This document shows, one piece after another, positions 3,105 through 42,015 of a DNA stretch of 43,594 nt. The position numbers and the translations under genes were made by a program. Position 1 is the stretch's first letter. Each line of letters starts with the position of its first letter. Source of the DNA: Kagunavirus PDP21P8. The notes beneath the pieces are model-generated. The model saw only the letters and a program-made list of their open reading frames with translations. It ran no database searches and had not been told where the DNA came from. The stretch lies in the sequence record OZ035783.1. One strand, 5' to 3'.

Positions 3105-3136
3105 TGAATAGTACCCTATTATATTGGTGTCTGCAA
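3105..3136 (-). promoter_or_regulatory. early-type promoter with AATAG-N4-CTATT operator
   Basis: minus-strand reading TTGCAG-17 nt-TACTAT; inverted repeat GAATAG-tacc-CTATT overlaps -10; 23 bp identical to site at 14310-14332. Confidence 0.5.
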
Positions 3137-14309: not shown

Positions 14310-14341
14310 TGAATAGTACCCTATTATATTGGGGTGTGCAA
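14310..14341 (-). promoter_or_regulatory. early-type promoter with AATAG-N4-CTATT operator
   Basis: minus-strand reading TTGCAC-17 nt-TACTAT, nearly identical to promoter at 36243-36274; ends ~26 nt upstream of the ATG at 14284. Confidence 0.5.
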
Positions 14342-30255: not shown

Positions 30256-30503
30256 CCATTCCAGCCAGTTATTTTCTCAACTATCTCAATATACTTGCTG
30301 GGCCATTTCATGTTGTTTATGAATCGAAGCGCCTGTGTCTTCCACGATTTATCGCTCAGGATAGCTTCGATGTCGCGAGTTTGTGTTATACATACCGTAA
30401 TACACATTAAGATAAATGTTGGTAGCGTTAGTGGCATCATAAGAACCCAGAAAACAATACACGCTATAAGCCCACCAAAAATCCTGAACGTTTTACGAAT
30501 CAT
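30252..30503 (-). CDS. small membrane protein
   Basis: ATG 30503 overlaps upstream stop (ATGA) with embedded SD GAGGAGGA; two predicted TM helices. Confidence 0.45.
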   Translation of the reverse strand: MIRKTFRIFGGLIACIVFWVLMMPLTLPTFILMCITVCITQTRDIEAILSDKSWKTQALRFINNMKWPSKYIEIVEKITGWNG

Positions 30504-37187: not shown

Positions 37188-37376
37188 ATGAGTAAGTGGA
37201 TTAAGTGTAGTGAGAGGATGCCGGAAGAGCTTGAGGATGTACTGGTTACTGATGGTAGGTCTGTAGAAGTTATGTACCTCAGATTAGGCCTCTGGTACGT
37301 AACATCCCCGGATTCTGCTATTTGTGGGGATGAGGTTACACACTGGATGCCGCTACCAGAGCCGCCGGAAGTGTGA
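37188..37376 (+). CDS. DUF551-like protein
   Basis: C-terminal VTHWMPLPEPPE is the characteristic DUF551 ending. Confidence 0.55.
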   Translation: MSKWIKCSERMPEELEDVLVTDGRSVEVMYLRLGLWYVTSPDSAICGDEVTHWMPLPEPPEV

Positions 37377-37876: not shown

Positions 37877-38024
37877 TTTCGTGGTGCAAGCAATGTACGC
37901 TGAGGAAATGGCAAAAAGTATGTTAGAGCAAACATTACATTTCGCTAAGCTGCAAGGGTTCGACGTACAGACAGTAGGCGACGAAATAGTATTGACCGAG
38001 AAGTCGGAGAACGGCGATGAGTAA
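37869..38024 (+). CDS. small hypothetical protein
   Basis: 51 aa, overlapping neighbours by 8 nt on each side. Confidence 0.3.
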   Translation: MNNFVVQAMYAEEMAKSMLEQTLHFAKLQGFDVQTVGDEIVLTEKSENGDE

Positions 38025-38715
38025 CAATGACGCAGTAATCGAGTTCCTGTTTAACCAACTACAGCAGCAGCTAACGAACAACCCATACAAGCAACAGTGC
38101 GAAGACCTGGCGCATGAGGTGCAGTCACTTAAGAATCAGTTACGTGATGCTTCGGCGCAGATTAAGGAGTTGCAGGAAGACAACATAAGGAAATCTGAGC
38201 ACATATCGCACCTGTCGGGACTGGTGGACGAGTTGATGGGGACTATAACGTTAATGAACGGGGACGTTGAGGCTTACAAAGTTCTACGCAAATGTGCGTG
38301 CGCCTATGGGCAATCCGGTTGTCGCGACGACGCCGCTCATATCGAGAAATCGTGGATTGAGCACGCTGGCGCCGCATGCCCTGTACCGGACGATACTGTT
38401 GTTGATATTAAATTCCGAAACGGCAAAATGGAAAGTAATACCAAAGCGCTATGGTGGAGTTGGGGCCTAAATGGCGGACCATACGAAATTGTTGCGTACC
38501 GTGTTGCCGCGCAACAATGCAATAAGGACGATACTCGTGAGTGCGCGCATGATTGGGTGCTGGACGAAAAAGGGGACTACTTCATTTGCGCTAAATGCGG
38601 TAAGCAAGAAGCTGAATTAATTGATTGCCGACACACTAATACCGTTGGTTTGCGTAAGGGTTTTGCGCCGGGGTTTACTAAAAAGTGTCTGGATTGCGGG
38701 GCTAAACTGAAATGA
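38017..38715 (+). CDS. coiled-coil / zinc-ribbon protein (paralog family)
   Basis: N-terminal coiled coil; YGQSGCR motif; C-terminal C-x-H ... C-x-x-C-G-K ribbons. Confidence 0.5.
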   Translation: MSNNDAVIEFLFNQLQQQLTNNPYKQQCEDLAHEVQSLKNQLRDASAQIKELQEDNIRKSEHISHLSGLVDELMGTITLMNGDVEAYKVLRKCACAYGQSGCRDDAAHIEKSWIEHAGAACPVPDDTVVDIKFRNGKMESNTKALWWSWGLNGGPYEIVAYRVAAQQCNKDDTRECAHDWVLDEKGDYFICAKCGKQEAELIDCRHTNTVGLRKGFAPGFTKKCLDCGAKLK

Positions 38716-38915
38716 CCAGCATTTTATTTATTTGGGTATTGTCCGCTGGCCAGATGCACCTCACGGCATCAGAAACGTTTTACTCGATGGAGGCGTGCCA
38801 GTCAGCGGCACGCGCCGCAGAGAACGCGCACTTCCTGTTTCAGGGCGACAAGCCAAACGATTCAGAGGTACGCGCTATCTGCTCACCTAAGCGACTTGGT
38901 AAACAGGAGAAGTGA
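38712..38915 (+). CDS. small secreted/membrane protein
   Basis: 67 aa with hydrophobic N-terminus; ATGA-coupled. Confidence 0.4.
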   Translation: MTSILFIWVLSAGQMHLTASETFYSMEACQSAARAAENAHFLFQGDKPNDSEVRAICSPKRLGKQEK

Positions 38916-39316
38916 TTGTGGTACAGAGATATGAGTTTAGAGCTGTGTGTGTTAACTCGTGCCACCCGTATCATGAGCTGGTTAAGAGTGACGAAGGCGA
39001 CTGGATAAGTTACGAAGATTACAAGGAACTGGACGACAGTTTCCAGGACTACATAACCACTACGGATATGGAAATAGAGGGGCTTGTGTCAAGACTGGCA
39101 GAAGTAAACGCCGAGTTACAGAAATACAAGGACCAGTTCCCGGATTATGTAGAGTTCGCGAACTGTAGGTCAGTTACACATGTGGAAGGAGTTGAAGACG
39201 CTATGGGGCAATCCGGTTGCCGTAAAGAAGACGCCCAAGAATGTGAACACGTGTGGAATAGGTACATTGTACACCCTCACAGAAAGATATGTTTAGTATG
39301 CGGGGTGAAGGAATGA
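38912..39316 (+). CDS. coiled-coil / zinc-ribbon protein (paralog family)
   Basis: MGQSGCRKEDA and ECEHVW...ICLVCG motifs shared with 38017-38715. Confidence 0.5.
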   Translation: MIVVQRYEFRAVCVNSCHPYHELVKSDEGDWISYEDYKELDDSFQDYITTTDMEIEGLVSRLAEVNAELQKYKDQFPDYVEFANCRSVTHVEGVEDAMGQSGCRKEDAQECEHVWNRYIVHPHRKICLVCGVKE

Positions 39317-40718: not shown

Positions 40719-40846
40719 TGGACGAATATGAAGGCGTTTAGTAAACTTATCCCTACGCTGTTTGTGCTTGCATACTAAGCCCCGGTAAACCCGAAGCAGC
40801 AGCCCAAGCGGTGGAGACTGCGTAGGGTTCAGGGGCTTATGACCGA

Positions 40847-40876
40847 AACCCGGACCGCGAATCCGGGTTTTATTTT
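40847..40876 (+). terminator. rho-independent terminator
   Basis: AACCCGGA-loop-TCCGGGTT followed by TTTTATTTT. Confidence 0.65.
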
Positions 40877-40881
40877 ACCAA

Positions 40882-40910
40882 TTGACACCTAAGACTAATC
40901 CGACGATACT
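40882..40910 (+). promoter_or_regulatory. putative sigma70-like promoter
   Basis: TTGACA-17 nt-GATACT. Confidence 0.3.
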
Positions 40911-40916
40911 TAAATC

Positions 40917-40981
40917 ACCTCCTGTTCCATCCCTCTGCTCTCCAGTTTTATCCCGGCCCTGACCCAGCCGGGATTTTTTTT
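40917..40981 (+). ncRNA. candidate ~65-nt small RNA
   Basis: no ORF; pyrimidine-rich CACCUCCUGUUCCAUCCCUCUGCUCUCC then strong terminator hairpin. Confidence 0.2.
40950..40981 (+). terminator. rho-independent terminator
   Basis: ATCCCGGC-9 nt loop-GCCGGGAT followed by eight T. Confidence 0.7.
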
Positions 40982-41003
40982 ATCTGTTTTCCACAATGAC
41001 TAG

Positions 41004-41032
41004 TTGACTATTATCTACGACCCTATTATATC
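41004..41032 (+). promoter_or_regulatory. putative sigma70-like promoter
   Basis: TTGACT-17 nt-TATATC with two CTATTAT elements; upstream of small-gene block. Confidence 0.4.
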
Positions 41033-41441: not shown

Positions 41442-41614
41442 TGACTAACAACGAATACGAGAAACTCAGCGTAGAATCCGCGACTGGTGAATCTGAAATA
41501 GTGTGGATTGACGCCCACATAGAGCACCACTTACGGCAGGTAGATAAACTTATGGAGCGCCGCCGTGAACTGATTAACCGCTTCAATCTGAACAAAGGTG
41601 ACACCAATGCCTAA
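41441..41614 (+). CDS. small hypothetical protein (57 aa)
   Basis: TAATG overlap with upstream ORF. Confidence 0.3.
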   Translation: MTNNEYEKLSVESATGESEIVWIDAHIEHHLRQVDKLMERRRELINRFNLNKGDTNA

Positions 41615-41846
41615 AATCACAATCGCATCGCTGGAGCGCCGTATTCTGGTGCTTGAGTCAGAGAAACAGACGTTAGGAGGGCAATTGTCGATTAACGGTG
41701 AATTTCAACTGGAGGCGTTTAAGATGTTGCTTGATAAGTTGAAAGCGGACGAAAAGCCTTGCGAGCACGATTACTACCTACATGTGGTTGGTGGATTACA
41801 TCGGGCCACGTGCATCAAATGCGGTAAAGCGTATGGAGTCGCCTAA
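41607..41846 (+). CDS. coiled-coil / zinc-ribbon protein (paralog family)
   Basis: C-terminal PCEHDYYLHVVGGLHRATCIKCGK matches the ribbon module of 38017-38715 and 38912-39316. Confidence 0.45.
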   Translation: MPKITIASLERRILVLESEKQTLGGQLSINGEFQLEAFKMLLDKLKADEKPCEHDYYLHVVGGLHRATCIKCGKAYGVA

Positions 41847-42015
41847 GCCGGTAGTTATTGAGGGCGTCCTGTGGAAACCTTACTCGGTTAACCACATCGA
41901 CGCCGACGGGAAGAAGTTCAGCTTCTACATTTTTGCAATTAGCCGGGAGCACGCCGCTTGTGTGGTAGACGATATACGAGAAACGGCGTGGCTTGGTGAT
42001 GAGATAGTGGGGTAA
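41833..42015 (+). CDS. hypothetical protein
   Basis: 60 aa from ATG 41833. Confidence 0.35.
   Translation: MESPKPVVIEGVLWKPYSVNHIDADGKKFSFYIFAISREHAACVVDDIRETAWLGDEIVG

Follow-up and report, generated by a model that had tools for sequence, protein, structure and literature searches.

The genome of the Escherichia coli phage Kagunavirus PDP21P8 encodes three small proteins, here called P1, P2 and P3, which appear to carry versions of the same exchangeable zinc cassette behind otherwise unrelated N-terminal parts. The stretch of DNA analysed (sequence record OZ035783.1; 43,594 bp; hereafter the window) is essentially a complete genome of this genus of the Guernseyvirinae. As far as can be judged from the sequences, the homologous part common to the three proteins is a unit of about 35-40 residues, composed of a charged and probably flexible linker and a mini zinc ribbon of about 20-25 residues. 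The explanation that best accounts for the observations as a whole, and which we consider probable on balance, is that exchangeable zinc cassettes are mounted on helical accessory proteins that act as host-interaction factors. Confidence in this explanation is uneven: the anatomy and evolution of the cassette are very probably as described below, and the function proposed for it is tentative and could well be otherwise. The genes concerned are the following:

38017-38715 (+): P1, 232 amino acids (aa)
38912-39316 (+): P2, 134 aa, GTG start
41607-41846 (+): P3, 79 aa

A shared cassette in three proteins

These open reading frames (ORFs) had been singled out in an initial annotation of the window, and they stand as called; the start residues of all three match those of their relatives. 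The same annotation viewed the proteins as a paralogous family whose members each possess an N-terminal coiled coil and end in a Cys/His motif. With regard to the C-terminal module the family relationship is upheld, but the N-terminal parts belong to separate and unrelated families (PHROGs 6094, 29624 and 9023/10200 for P1, P2 and P3, respectively), and the proteins are not paralogs over their whole length. Similarly, a module is present in all three proteins, but the motif quoted for P1 is that of an inner module, as P1 has two modules and its C-terminal end is formed by a divergent second one.

The shared unit can be written as a linker, (E/G)QSGCRKEDxQ, followed by E-C-x-H-x-[WYF], 10-25 variable residues and C-x-x-C-G; the more specific string [YM]GQSGCR[DK][DE], noted earlier in two of the proteins, is indeed present in P1 and P2. 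In all four modules the four candidate ligands are arranged in two knuckles, C-x-H and C-x-x-C, as is characteristic of zinc ribbons. A six-frame scan of the window for C-x-H(6-32)C-x-x-C located four instances in real genes (two in P1, one in P2, one in P3) and only one elsewhere, in an antisense ORF.

That the similarity goes beyond scattered cysteines, as the initial annotation had proposed, is borne out by several comparisons. Pairwise BLASTP gave E values of 7e-8 for P1/P3, 2e-4 for P2/P3 and 3e-3 for P1/P2. The PHROG 6094 profile matched P1 (2.2e-42), P2 (3.5e-11) and P3 (4.4e-3), and the PHROG 9023 profile matched P3 (1.5e-40) as well as residues 136-198 of P1 (2.1e-7). In profile-profile alignments with hhalign, residues 97-132 of P2 were aligned to the P1-family profile with 97% probability (E=3.1e-11) and residues 35-75 of the P3 family to the P1 family with 89% probability (E=2.3e-6), both alignments skipping the middle domain of P1 as an insertion. 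In addition, hidden Markov models (HMMs) of the module were built from other phages, with the tested subtype excluded, and run against 982 six-frame segments of the window. These leave-one-subtype-out models retrieved three of the four modules, namely the first module of P1 (module A, 9e-6) and those of P3 (2e-4) and P2 (5.5e-3), against a best background of 0.2-0.4; for the second module of P1 (module B) the E value of 1.3 is not significant, and its homology is not statistically supported. Positions other than the ligands are also held in common: the E that precedes the Cys, the aromatic residue that follows the His, the Gly after CxxC and the QSGCRKED linker. The modules of P2 and P3 are most closely related to modules encoded at the P1 loci of other phages (14/25 and 12-13/27 identities, respectively). 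A tblastn search with the zinc part of P1 alone returned 38 records, all of them Escherichia, Salmonella, Raoultella or Kagunavirus phages of 41-45 kb, so that the module is, as far as a search of this sensitivity can tell, confined to one phage lineage.

Architecture of P1

P1 is a mosaic, in which a coiled coil, a linker, a beta mini-domain, a degenerate linker and two zinc modules succeed one another (all on the plus strand):

38026-38298 (+): N-terminal long helix/coiled coil, aa 4-94, from AlphaFold2 (AF2) and a heptad test
38308-38331 (+): linker copy 1, GQSGCRDD, including the 14-nucleotide (nt) repeat at 38308-38321
38335-38526 (+): inserted beta mini-domain of ~55 aa (within aa 107-170), WIEHxGxxCPVPDDTVVDIKFRNG…YEIVAYRV, PHROG 9174 (2.6e-12)
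38512-38541 (+): degenerate linker copy 2, QQCNKDDTRE, where homology to insert-less alleles resumes
38542-38601 (+): zinc module A, CAHDWVLDEKGDYFICAKCG, candidate ligands C176, H178, C191 and C194
38626-38700 (+): zinc module B, CRHTNTVGLRKGFAPGFTKKCLDCG, DCRHTN…CLDCGAKLK, same ligand pattern as the other modules

Homologs of P1 are numerous (860 detectable members of 129-276 aa) and share a conserved N-terminus, MSNKNEVFEYLIDQLRQQ…QQCEDLAHEVQSLKNQLRD, behind which come coiled-coil inserts that differ between members, then the linker, then a C-terminal string that is likewise variable. The first ~45 residues constitute the conserved family core, and the corresponding DNA is kept across loci to position ~38174; the P1 of phage Bas71 is 91% identical to that of the window. 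Among 121 P1-family sequences C191 and C194 are invariant, and conservation reaches at least 90% at C176, H178, W180, G186, K193 and G195. The whole proteins P1 and P2 are acidic, with isoelectric points (pI) of 5.7 and 4.8; among the modules, module A of P1 has a pI of 4.5, module B is basic (9.7), and those of P2 and P3 are neutral to basic.

AF2 predicts for P1 a long helix, low-confidence linkers, a middle domain of three strands and, at the modules, short hairpins. The helices (residues 4-19, 25-80 and 84-94) were modelled with a predicted local distance difference test (pLDDT) score of 80-92, residues 93-109 are predicted to be disordered (pLDDT <50), the linker at residues 167-175 also falls below 50, and the strands of the zinc module are placed at residues 180-182 and 189-191, the zinc modules of P1 and P3 having pLDDT values of 55-77. 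A crude heptad test gave P1 a score of 1.0 with a shuffle p of ~0.017, and was not significant for P2 (p=0.22) and P3 (p=0.44), in which the helices are short. Of the N-terminal coiled coils ascribed to all three proteins, that of P1 is thus supported by both tests but those of P2 and P3 are not; structure prediction, recommended in the initial annotation and carried out on P1 and P3, did yield the combination of helix and small beta elements.

The beta mini-domain (three predicted strands at residues 128-163) is not present in most P1 alleles. It is flanked by the two copies of the linker, the second recognisable because hhalign pairs the NKDDTRE of P1 with RKEDTQE, and several other alleles have a linker on both sides of an inserted beta domain. 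At E<=1e-3 a search with residues 104-232 of P1 returned 474 representative clusters; the majority of the best-listed 150 map to this domain, for which no Pfam family and no PDB relative was found. Across its relatives the consensus is WIxWxGGECPVPxDTxVxVxFRxG…W.W…DIVAYRV. It also occurs as stand-alone proteins of 56-70 aa, and proteins of up to 1031 aa carry 2-7 copies of it in tandem.

Variation among related phages

The search for the module in related phages, which had been suggested as a check, was successful and uncovered strong diversification. Loci were compared with the aid of a conserved gene that served as an anchor, and with which 50 IMG/VR loci were retrieved:

38712-38915 (+): conserved 67-aa gene between P1 and P2, PHROG 3766 (1e-35)

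The best 120 P1 homologs contain one module (18 proteins), two (88), three (12) or four (2). A catalogue assembled from the proteins of both homolog searches and the zinc-module ORFs of the IMG/VR loci comprises 388 modules, which fall into 23 clusters representing about 20 credible subtypes, and 45 distinct architectures were encountered among 152 P1-locus alleles, a sample biased towards relatives of the window's own P1 type. The P1 locus therefore presents itself, in the alleles compared, as hypervariable, with a conserved coiled-coil stalk, a linker, between zero and four zinc modules and an optional beta mini-domain. In phage AV104, for example, the P1 ortholog is 98% identical over the first 130 nt of the gene, yet it is a protein of 121 aa with two different modules and no middle domain. 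In some relatives the P1 allele has no zinc module, and in others the P1 gene is missing altogether, which on the evidence of gene content shows the zinc modules and the P1 gene itself to be dispensable.

When the P1-P2 region of the window was compared by blastn with 53 related loci, homology blocks were found to stop or start at recurrent positions:

~38174: end of the conserved 5' block
38324: inside linker 1, where high-scoring segment pairs (HSPs) of three loci end
38523/4: degenerate linker 2, where HSPs of five loci start
38699-38712: next gene after P1
39195: end of the P2 core
39302-39313: gene following P2

Four P1 alleles (L001, L002, L020 and L021) can be aligned as near-identical DNA over nt 1 to 206-235, with the linker at nt 187-207 in L001, L002 and L021 and at nt 175-195 in L020; past the linker they continue into different modules or into the beta domain. 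The linker of P2 in the window is moreover 81-91% identical, over 30-47 nt, to the P1-locus linkers of 19 other loci. As homology blocks end at the linker when genomes are compared, the data are compatible with the notion that this conserved patch of about 20-45 nt serves as an exchange point between genomes.

The linker as DNA repeat and as peptide

The initial annotation had drawn attention to a near-identical repeat of 18 bp shared by the P1 and P2 genes, and had considered that it might mediate recombination. The exact in-frame identity, however, amounts to 14 nt (GGGCAATCCGGTTG, at 38308-38321 and 39206-39219), the claimed repeat of 18/19 bp being out of register at its 5' end (TAT-GGG versus ATG-GGG). 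There are 12 exact direct repeats of at least 14 nt in the window, the longest of 23 nt, versus 3.5 expected under uniform base composition, and by its length the P1/P2 repeat is therefore unremarkable. Longer exact direct repeats are found at 30502/33093 (19 nt), 15168/21523 (19 nt), 29587/34325 (18 nt) and 12079/19349 (16 nt), two of these being situated where the minus-strand genes for the exonuclease and the primase-helicase have their 3' ends. Intragenomic recombination mediated by the P1/P2 repeat is not supported either: only 14 nt are common to the two genes, no P1 N-terminus joined to a P2-type module was found in the module catalogue, and the codons of the linker vary synonymously.

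This last point emerges from 41 copies of the linker, of which 36-40 retain each of Q, S, G, C, R, K, E and D. The codons for S, R, K and D vary (1.0-1.3 bits), although these residues are kept in 38-40 of the 41 copies, and synonymous entropy in the conserved N-terminal block is mostly below that of the linker (0-0.9 bits per codon). Because residues are kept where codons vary, the linker is evidently under purifying selection as a peptide, and its similarity between loci is an opening for recombination rather than a demonstrated DNA signal. Two other roles were considered for the linker. Its SGC was rejected as a lipoprotein box, as the sequence upstream contains no signal peptide, and its Cys is unlikely to be an obligatory fifth ligand, given that SGRRKED alleles exist (one cluster has 16 members) and that tandem inner modules lack a linker.

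P2 and P3

In these two proteins a single module follows N-terminal parts of different origin (all features on the plus strand):

38912-39196 (+): P2 core, aa 1-95, a separate family that ends with …HVEGVE and a stop in most relatives
39197-39313 (+): P2 C-terminal cassette, DAMGQSGCRKEDAQECEHVWNRYIVHPHRKICLVCGVKE, from DNA alignment
39206-39235 (+): P2 linker, including the 14-nt repeat at 39206-39219
39242-39304 (+): P2 zinc module, candidate ligands C111, H113, C127 and C130
41622-41750 (+): P3 helical hairpin, AF2 helices 6-22 and 29-48
41760-41825 (+): P3 zinc module, candidate ligands C52, H54, C69 and C72

Members of the P2 family, MIMVQRY…AELQKYKDQFPDYVECANCGSVTHVEGVE followed by a stop, normally end at the end of the core. 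In a DNA alignment the cassette of P2 corresponds to an exact in-frame insertion of 114 nt, bordered by the microhomology GGAGTTGAAG / GGGGTGAAGG, which is present in the window, in AV104 and in two IMG/VR contigs (L001, L021 and L022 in the alignment) and is missing from six other loci. A P2 match covering at least 80% was obtained for 9 of 111 GenBank phage records, and among the 30 matches listed 20 end at aa 95. The P2 cassette is a recent in-frame addition with which, in a minority of relatives, a different protein has been extended at its C-terminus.

The usual end of the P2 family, …YVECANCGSVTHVEGVE (39150-39196; also in L010, L012 and others), tips the helical protein with a single C-x-x-C-G(x3)H knuckle; this knuckle is mutated to EFANCR in the window and kept as ECANCR in AV104. 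In L010 (4384-4575), and similarly in other loci, a second MVQRY… gene with a different C-terminus, …EAKLREFAEQVMYEPCSKVTEEMAREILGI, is located directly after P2, which makes the interval between P2 and the gene after it another variable site.

P3 was modelled by AF2 with an overall pLDDT of 80, above 90 in the helical hairpin and 62-77 in a small beta sheet (strands 56-61 and 64-69). Among 34 P3-family sequences C52, H54, C69, C72 and G73 are invariant and the residues between them variable, and identity is 85% in the N-terminal part versus 61-66% in the zinc part. The N-terminal 48 residues of the family are constant, and the tail that follows them is either the zinc module, an acidic sequence (…EEEQKLLLSPEFDYGVDDESA) or a third type (…DEEDWEHSLQDLWQY).

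Genomic setting

The segment from 37.8 to 42.0 kb is 91-96% identical, in patches, to the E. coli phages AV104, LM08P2, Bas71 and Bas76, and no database record covers more than 80% of it in one piece, a combination that indicates local mosaicism. Structural genes are encoded on the plus strand up to ~23.8 kb; the minus strand carries genes for replication and recombination, including a helicase, a methyltransferase, a DNA polymerase, a Gp2.5-like annealing protein, an exonuclease and a primase-helicase. Coding on the plus strand restarts at ~36.3 kb with a run of small ORFs, among them P1 and P2, of which the last are the holins and the endolysin (40.7 kb). P1 and P2 are therefore placed immediately upstream of the holin/endolysin genes, and P3 in a second block of small ORFs beyond the lysis genes, behind a sigma-70-like promoter; their assignment to an early region, as first suggested, is not established by this arrangement. 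The start of each of the three genes overlaps the stop of the preceding gene (ATGA, GTGA or ATGccTAA), so that they are probably translated as members of operons.

The promoter upstream of the P3 gene block contains a core element that recurs in the window:

41004-41032 (+): sigma-70-like promoter element, TTGACT-N17-TATATC, core ACCCTATTATAT

Exact copies of ACCCTATTATAT occur three times on the plus strand (3113-3124, 14318-14329 and 41020-41031) versus 0.16 expected; all three lie within a sigma-70-like -35/-10 layout upstream of a plus-strand gene block, and two of them have 23 identical nt in common. These sites are probably a set of phage promoters, to judge by their layout. Beyond the endolysin gene, at 40840-40985, two GC-rich hairpins followed by T-runs (…CCCGGACCGCGAATCCGGGTTTTATTTT; CCCGGCCCTGACCCAGCCGGGATTTTTTTT) were recognised by eye, and look like intrinsic terminators that a pattern scan did not report.

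Several neighbouring genes may be mentioned here. The 67-aa protein encoded between P1 and P2 has a hydrophobic N-terminus, ILFIWVLSAG, and may be membrane-anchored or secreted. A small ORF at 37188-37376 (+), ending …VTHWMPLPEPPEV, presumably resembles a phage mini-protein of the DUF551 type. The end of P3 is overlapped by a 60-aa ORF (41833-42015, plus strand; PHROG 10509), the ortholog of which in phage fEg-Eco06 is annotated as "RNA polymerase inhibitor, similar to 2LMC_A" (T7 Gp2). A phmmer search of the PDB with this ORF returned no match, and BLASTP against a Gp2 sequence gave E=0.18; the idea that P3 partners with an adjacent T7 Gp2-like inhibitor of RNA polymerase was accordingly rejected, the likeness to Gp2 having no sequence support.

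Searches for function and comparison with known systems

Comparison of P1, P2 and P3 with Pfam, NCBIfam and PADLOC yielded coiled-coil-type noise only. Pfam zinc-ribbon models remained below threshold, the best being PF08271 (TFIIB Zn_Ribbon) with E=0.98 for P1 and 0.035 for a homolog, and the sole match among the PADLOC defence models was of the coiled-coil type (LmuB, E=1.4e-3, P1 residues 16-81). Precomputed PF20302 and PF24627 marks on two homologs were dismissed as sub-threshold coiled-coil matches. The "Cell division protein" label on the P1 ortholog of phages hz69 and Henuyfy11N was rejected as an automated coiled-coil label with no supporting match. Sequence searches of the PDB with P1 and with a profile of the beta mini-domain returned nothing below E=0.25. 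Foldseek searches of the PDB found nothing at E<2 for the AF2 model of P1 and only local, non-significant matches (E>=0.9) for that of P3, the best of which were to generic zinc knuckles or ribbons in Kaiso, the Nudix N-terminus, eIF2-beta and the RNA polymerase III chain 7a6h_I. Literature searches on zinc proteins or mosaicism in Kagunavirus and Guernseyvirinae, and on zinc-ribbon coiled-coil anti-defence proteins of phages, produced nothing on these proteins, and the sections of an article on Kagunavirus biology considered here do not mention them (PMC11990801).

Several known systems nevertheless offer points of comparison. Like the zinc ribbons of TFIIB, Rpb9 and the Nudix N-terminus, the cassette has two knuckles some 12-20 residues apart within 20-30 residues and is used as an appended module. 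The small beta hairpin or sheet predicted for it has moderate confidence and only local, non-significant Foldseek matches. The cassette differs in that the first knuckle is C-x-H and not C-x-x-C/H, in that no curated profile matched, and in the occurrence of tandem arrays of many subtypes. In the Ea22 protein of phage lambda, which has similar counterparts among the accessory proteins of lambdoid phages, a tetramerising coiled coil stands between an N-terminal part and a C-terminal domain that is variable (PMC10834534). P1 recalls it in its short N-terminal part, its coiled coil, predicted to oligomerise, its C-terminal diversity among phages and its location in a poorly characterised accessory region. 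The C-terminal domain of Ea22 is, however, a mixed alpha-beta dimer as opposed to the predicted zinc ribbon of P1, and no Ea22 chain was among the PDB sequence matches at E<=10 obtained with P1 or the beta mini-domain profile, even though the structure of that domain has been deposited. A pro-lysogenic role is also unlikely for P1, as the genus Kagunavirus is treated as consisting of virulent siphoviruses in the text drawn on here (PMC11990801). Members of the DksA/TraR family, including Orf73 of lambda, are small phage and plasmid proteins with helices and a C-terminal zinc element (PMC9239242). P3 has a superficial likeness to them and is close in size to TraR (79 versus 73 aa), but its ligand pattern is CxH…CxxC and not C4, the turn of its hairpin, GGQLSING, has no acidic tip, and the Pfam zf-dskA_traR model gave no match at E<=1; on all three counts P3 was rejected as a protein of this type.

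A purely functional analogy can be drawn with tandem C2H2 arrays, which are likewise strings of small zinc-stabilised modules that vary in number and order between paralogs or alleles; the cassettes described here have a different fold, are not homologous, comprise heterogeneous subtypes with varied connectors, and give no indication of binding nucleic acids. With regard to the pattern of exchange, it is known from lambdoid phages that variable segments of mosaic genomes are bracketed by short conserved stretches at which homology starts or stops. The variable segments of the P1 locus are bracketed in the same way, but in this case the joints are inside a single gene, at a linker between domains of ~25 residues, and the outcome is intragenic domain shuffling as opposed to an exchange of whole gene modules.

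Proposed mechanism and alternatives

On the explanation favoured here, recombination between co-infecting relatives would take place where the DNA is conserved, in the 5' block, at the linker and in the downstream gene, with occasional microhomology insertions contributing further diversity and the linker being maintained by selection on the peptide. The genome does encode recombination machinery in the form of the Gp2.5-like annealing protein and the exonuclease. Each module would bind one zinc ion through its Cys-His-Cys-Cys set of ligands, and the helical N-termini would oligomerise and display the zinc-stabilised knobs, which may contact a host or phage macromolecule, a protein being more likely than DNA. 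P1, P2 and P3 would accordingly be dispensable, rapidly diversifying host-interaction factors, for which we favour a role of the host-interaction or counter-defence type. A protein target and host interaction are favoured because P1 and P2 are acidic, because the locus is accessory and hypervariable, and because the loops between the ligands change faster than the scaffold.

A number of points weigh against this explanation. No annotated homolog bearing on function came out of Pfam, NCBIfam, PADLOC, the PDB sequence searches or Foldseek; zinc binding and oligomerisation are predictions, and AF2 modelled the zinc modules with moderate confidence (pLDDT 55-77). Module B of P1, being basic, might bind nucleic acid. 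The diversity could reflect neutral mosaicism instead of an arms race, the sample of alleles is biased as noted above, and the coincidence of breakpoints with the linker may merely mirror which recombinants retain intact domains.

The observations can be read in other ways. That the similarity reflects chance or convergence of short Cys/His patterns in three unrelated proteins is very improbable, since the modules, although they are very short, although BLASTP between P1 and P2 reaches only E=0.003, and although module B is not retrieved unless its own subtype is in the profile, are joined by profile-profile E values of 3e-11 and 2e-6, are separated from the 982 segments by two to four orders of magnitude with the leave-one-out HMMs, and share non-ligand positions, the modules of P2 and P3 finding their nearest relatives at P1 loci elsewhere. 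A less extreme view, which stems from the initial annotation and which we hold to be rather improbable, is that the linker DNA is itself a short recombination signal that shuffles cassettes, including between P1 and P2 within a genome. It draws on the termination of between-allele homology at or just past the linker, the 81-91% identity over 30-47 nt of the P2 linker to P1-locus linkers at 19 other loci, the linker copies on either side of the inserted beta domain, a CAA-TCY-GGT-TGC core in which codons are nearly fixed, and the presence of genes for the annealing protein and exonuclease. Yet the exact run shared by P1 and P2 is, at 14 nt, no longer than 11 unrelated repeats in the window, the S, R, K and D codons vary under a conserved peptide with a synonymous entropy that exceeds that of the N-terminal block, P1 N-termini with P2-type modules were not seen, and the joint of the P2 insertion has a different microhomology.

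With respect to function, the zinc-ribbon arrays might be nucleic-acid-binding regulators (transcription or translation factors, or binders of DNA ends or RNA), with the order of modules setting their sequence specificity, in loose analogy to tandem zinc fingers. Many zinc ribbons bind nucleic acids, module B of P1 has a pI of 9.7 and the modules of P2 and P3 are neutral to basic, the best (non-significant) local fold matches include zinc knuckles associated with DNA or RNA, and P3 is part of a promoter-proximal block of small genes. This reading is nevertheless unlikely in view of the overall acidity of P1 and P2, the pI of 4.5 of module A and the failure to match any DNA-binding family, and a conserved target in the phage genome is hard to square with modules that are lost freely or, in P3, replaced by acidic tails. 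Such losses and replacements would be less troublesome if the zinc knobs had no specific ligand and were small stabilising caps, with function residing in the N-terminal parts, which are the conserved portions, and variety arising from neutral mosaic drift; some alleles even lack ligand residues (for example, EREHDW or SGRRKED). There is, however, clear purifying selection on the ligand positions and the linker wherever these are present, and the occurrence of up to four modules in a protein together with the independent acquisition by P2 suggests that the cassette confers something, so that we also consider this alternative to be unlikely. A bolder version of the host-interaction explanation, to which we attach a low probability, is that the P1 locus of the Guernseyvirinae is a dedicated site of combinatorial diversification. 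In this view an oligomeric stalk and linker, both conserved, would bear a freely reshuffled array of zinc-stabilised knobs of about 20 types, the cassette could also be grafted onto proteins such as P2 and P3, and these small virulent phages would possess a modular toolkit of binders against variable host factors such as defence proteins.

Implications

Small accessory genes, among which many functions in host takeover and anti-defence have been found, are less well understood than any other part of phage genomes. What is described here is an unnamed and lineage-restricted family of mini zinc-ribbon cassettes that undergoes unusually fine-grained domain shuffling, the mechanism in itself being no surprise. 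The P1 locus offers a well-sampled instance of intragenic shuffling among zinc modules of ~25 residues, with a defined linker, an exchange point and a catalogue of module types, in a genus that has recently become open to experiment through the relatives Bas70-76 of the BASEL collection. If the type of module does track host factors, the locus would provide a compact model for the evolution of binding specificity in phages. If it does not, the analysis still documents an unnamed family of mini zinc ribbons and a widespread, unnamed beta mini-domain, both of which are at present labelled "hypothetical" by annotation pipelines.

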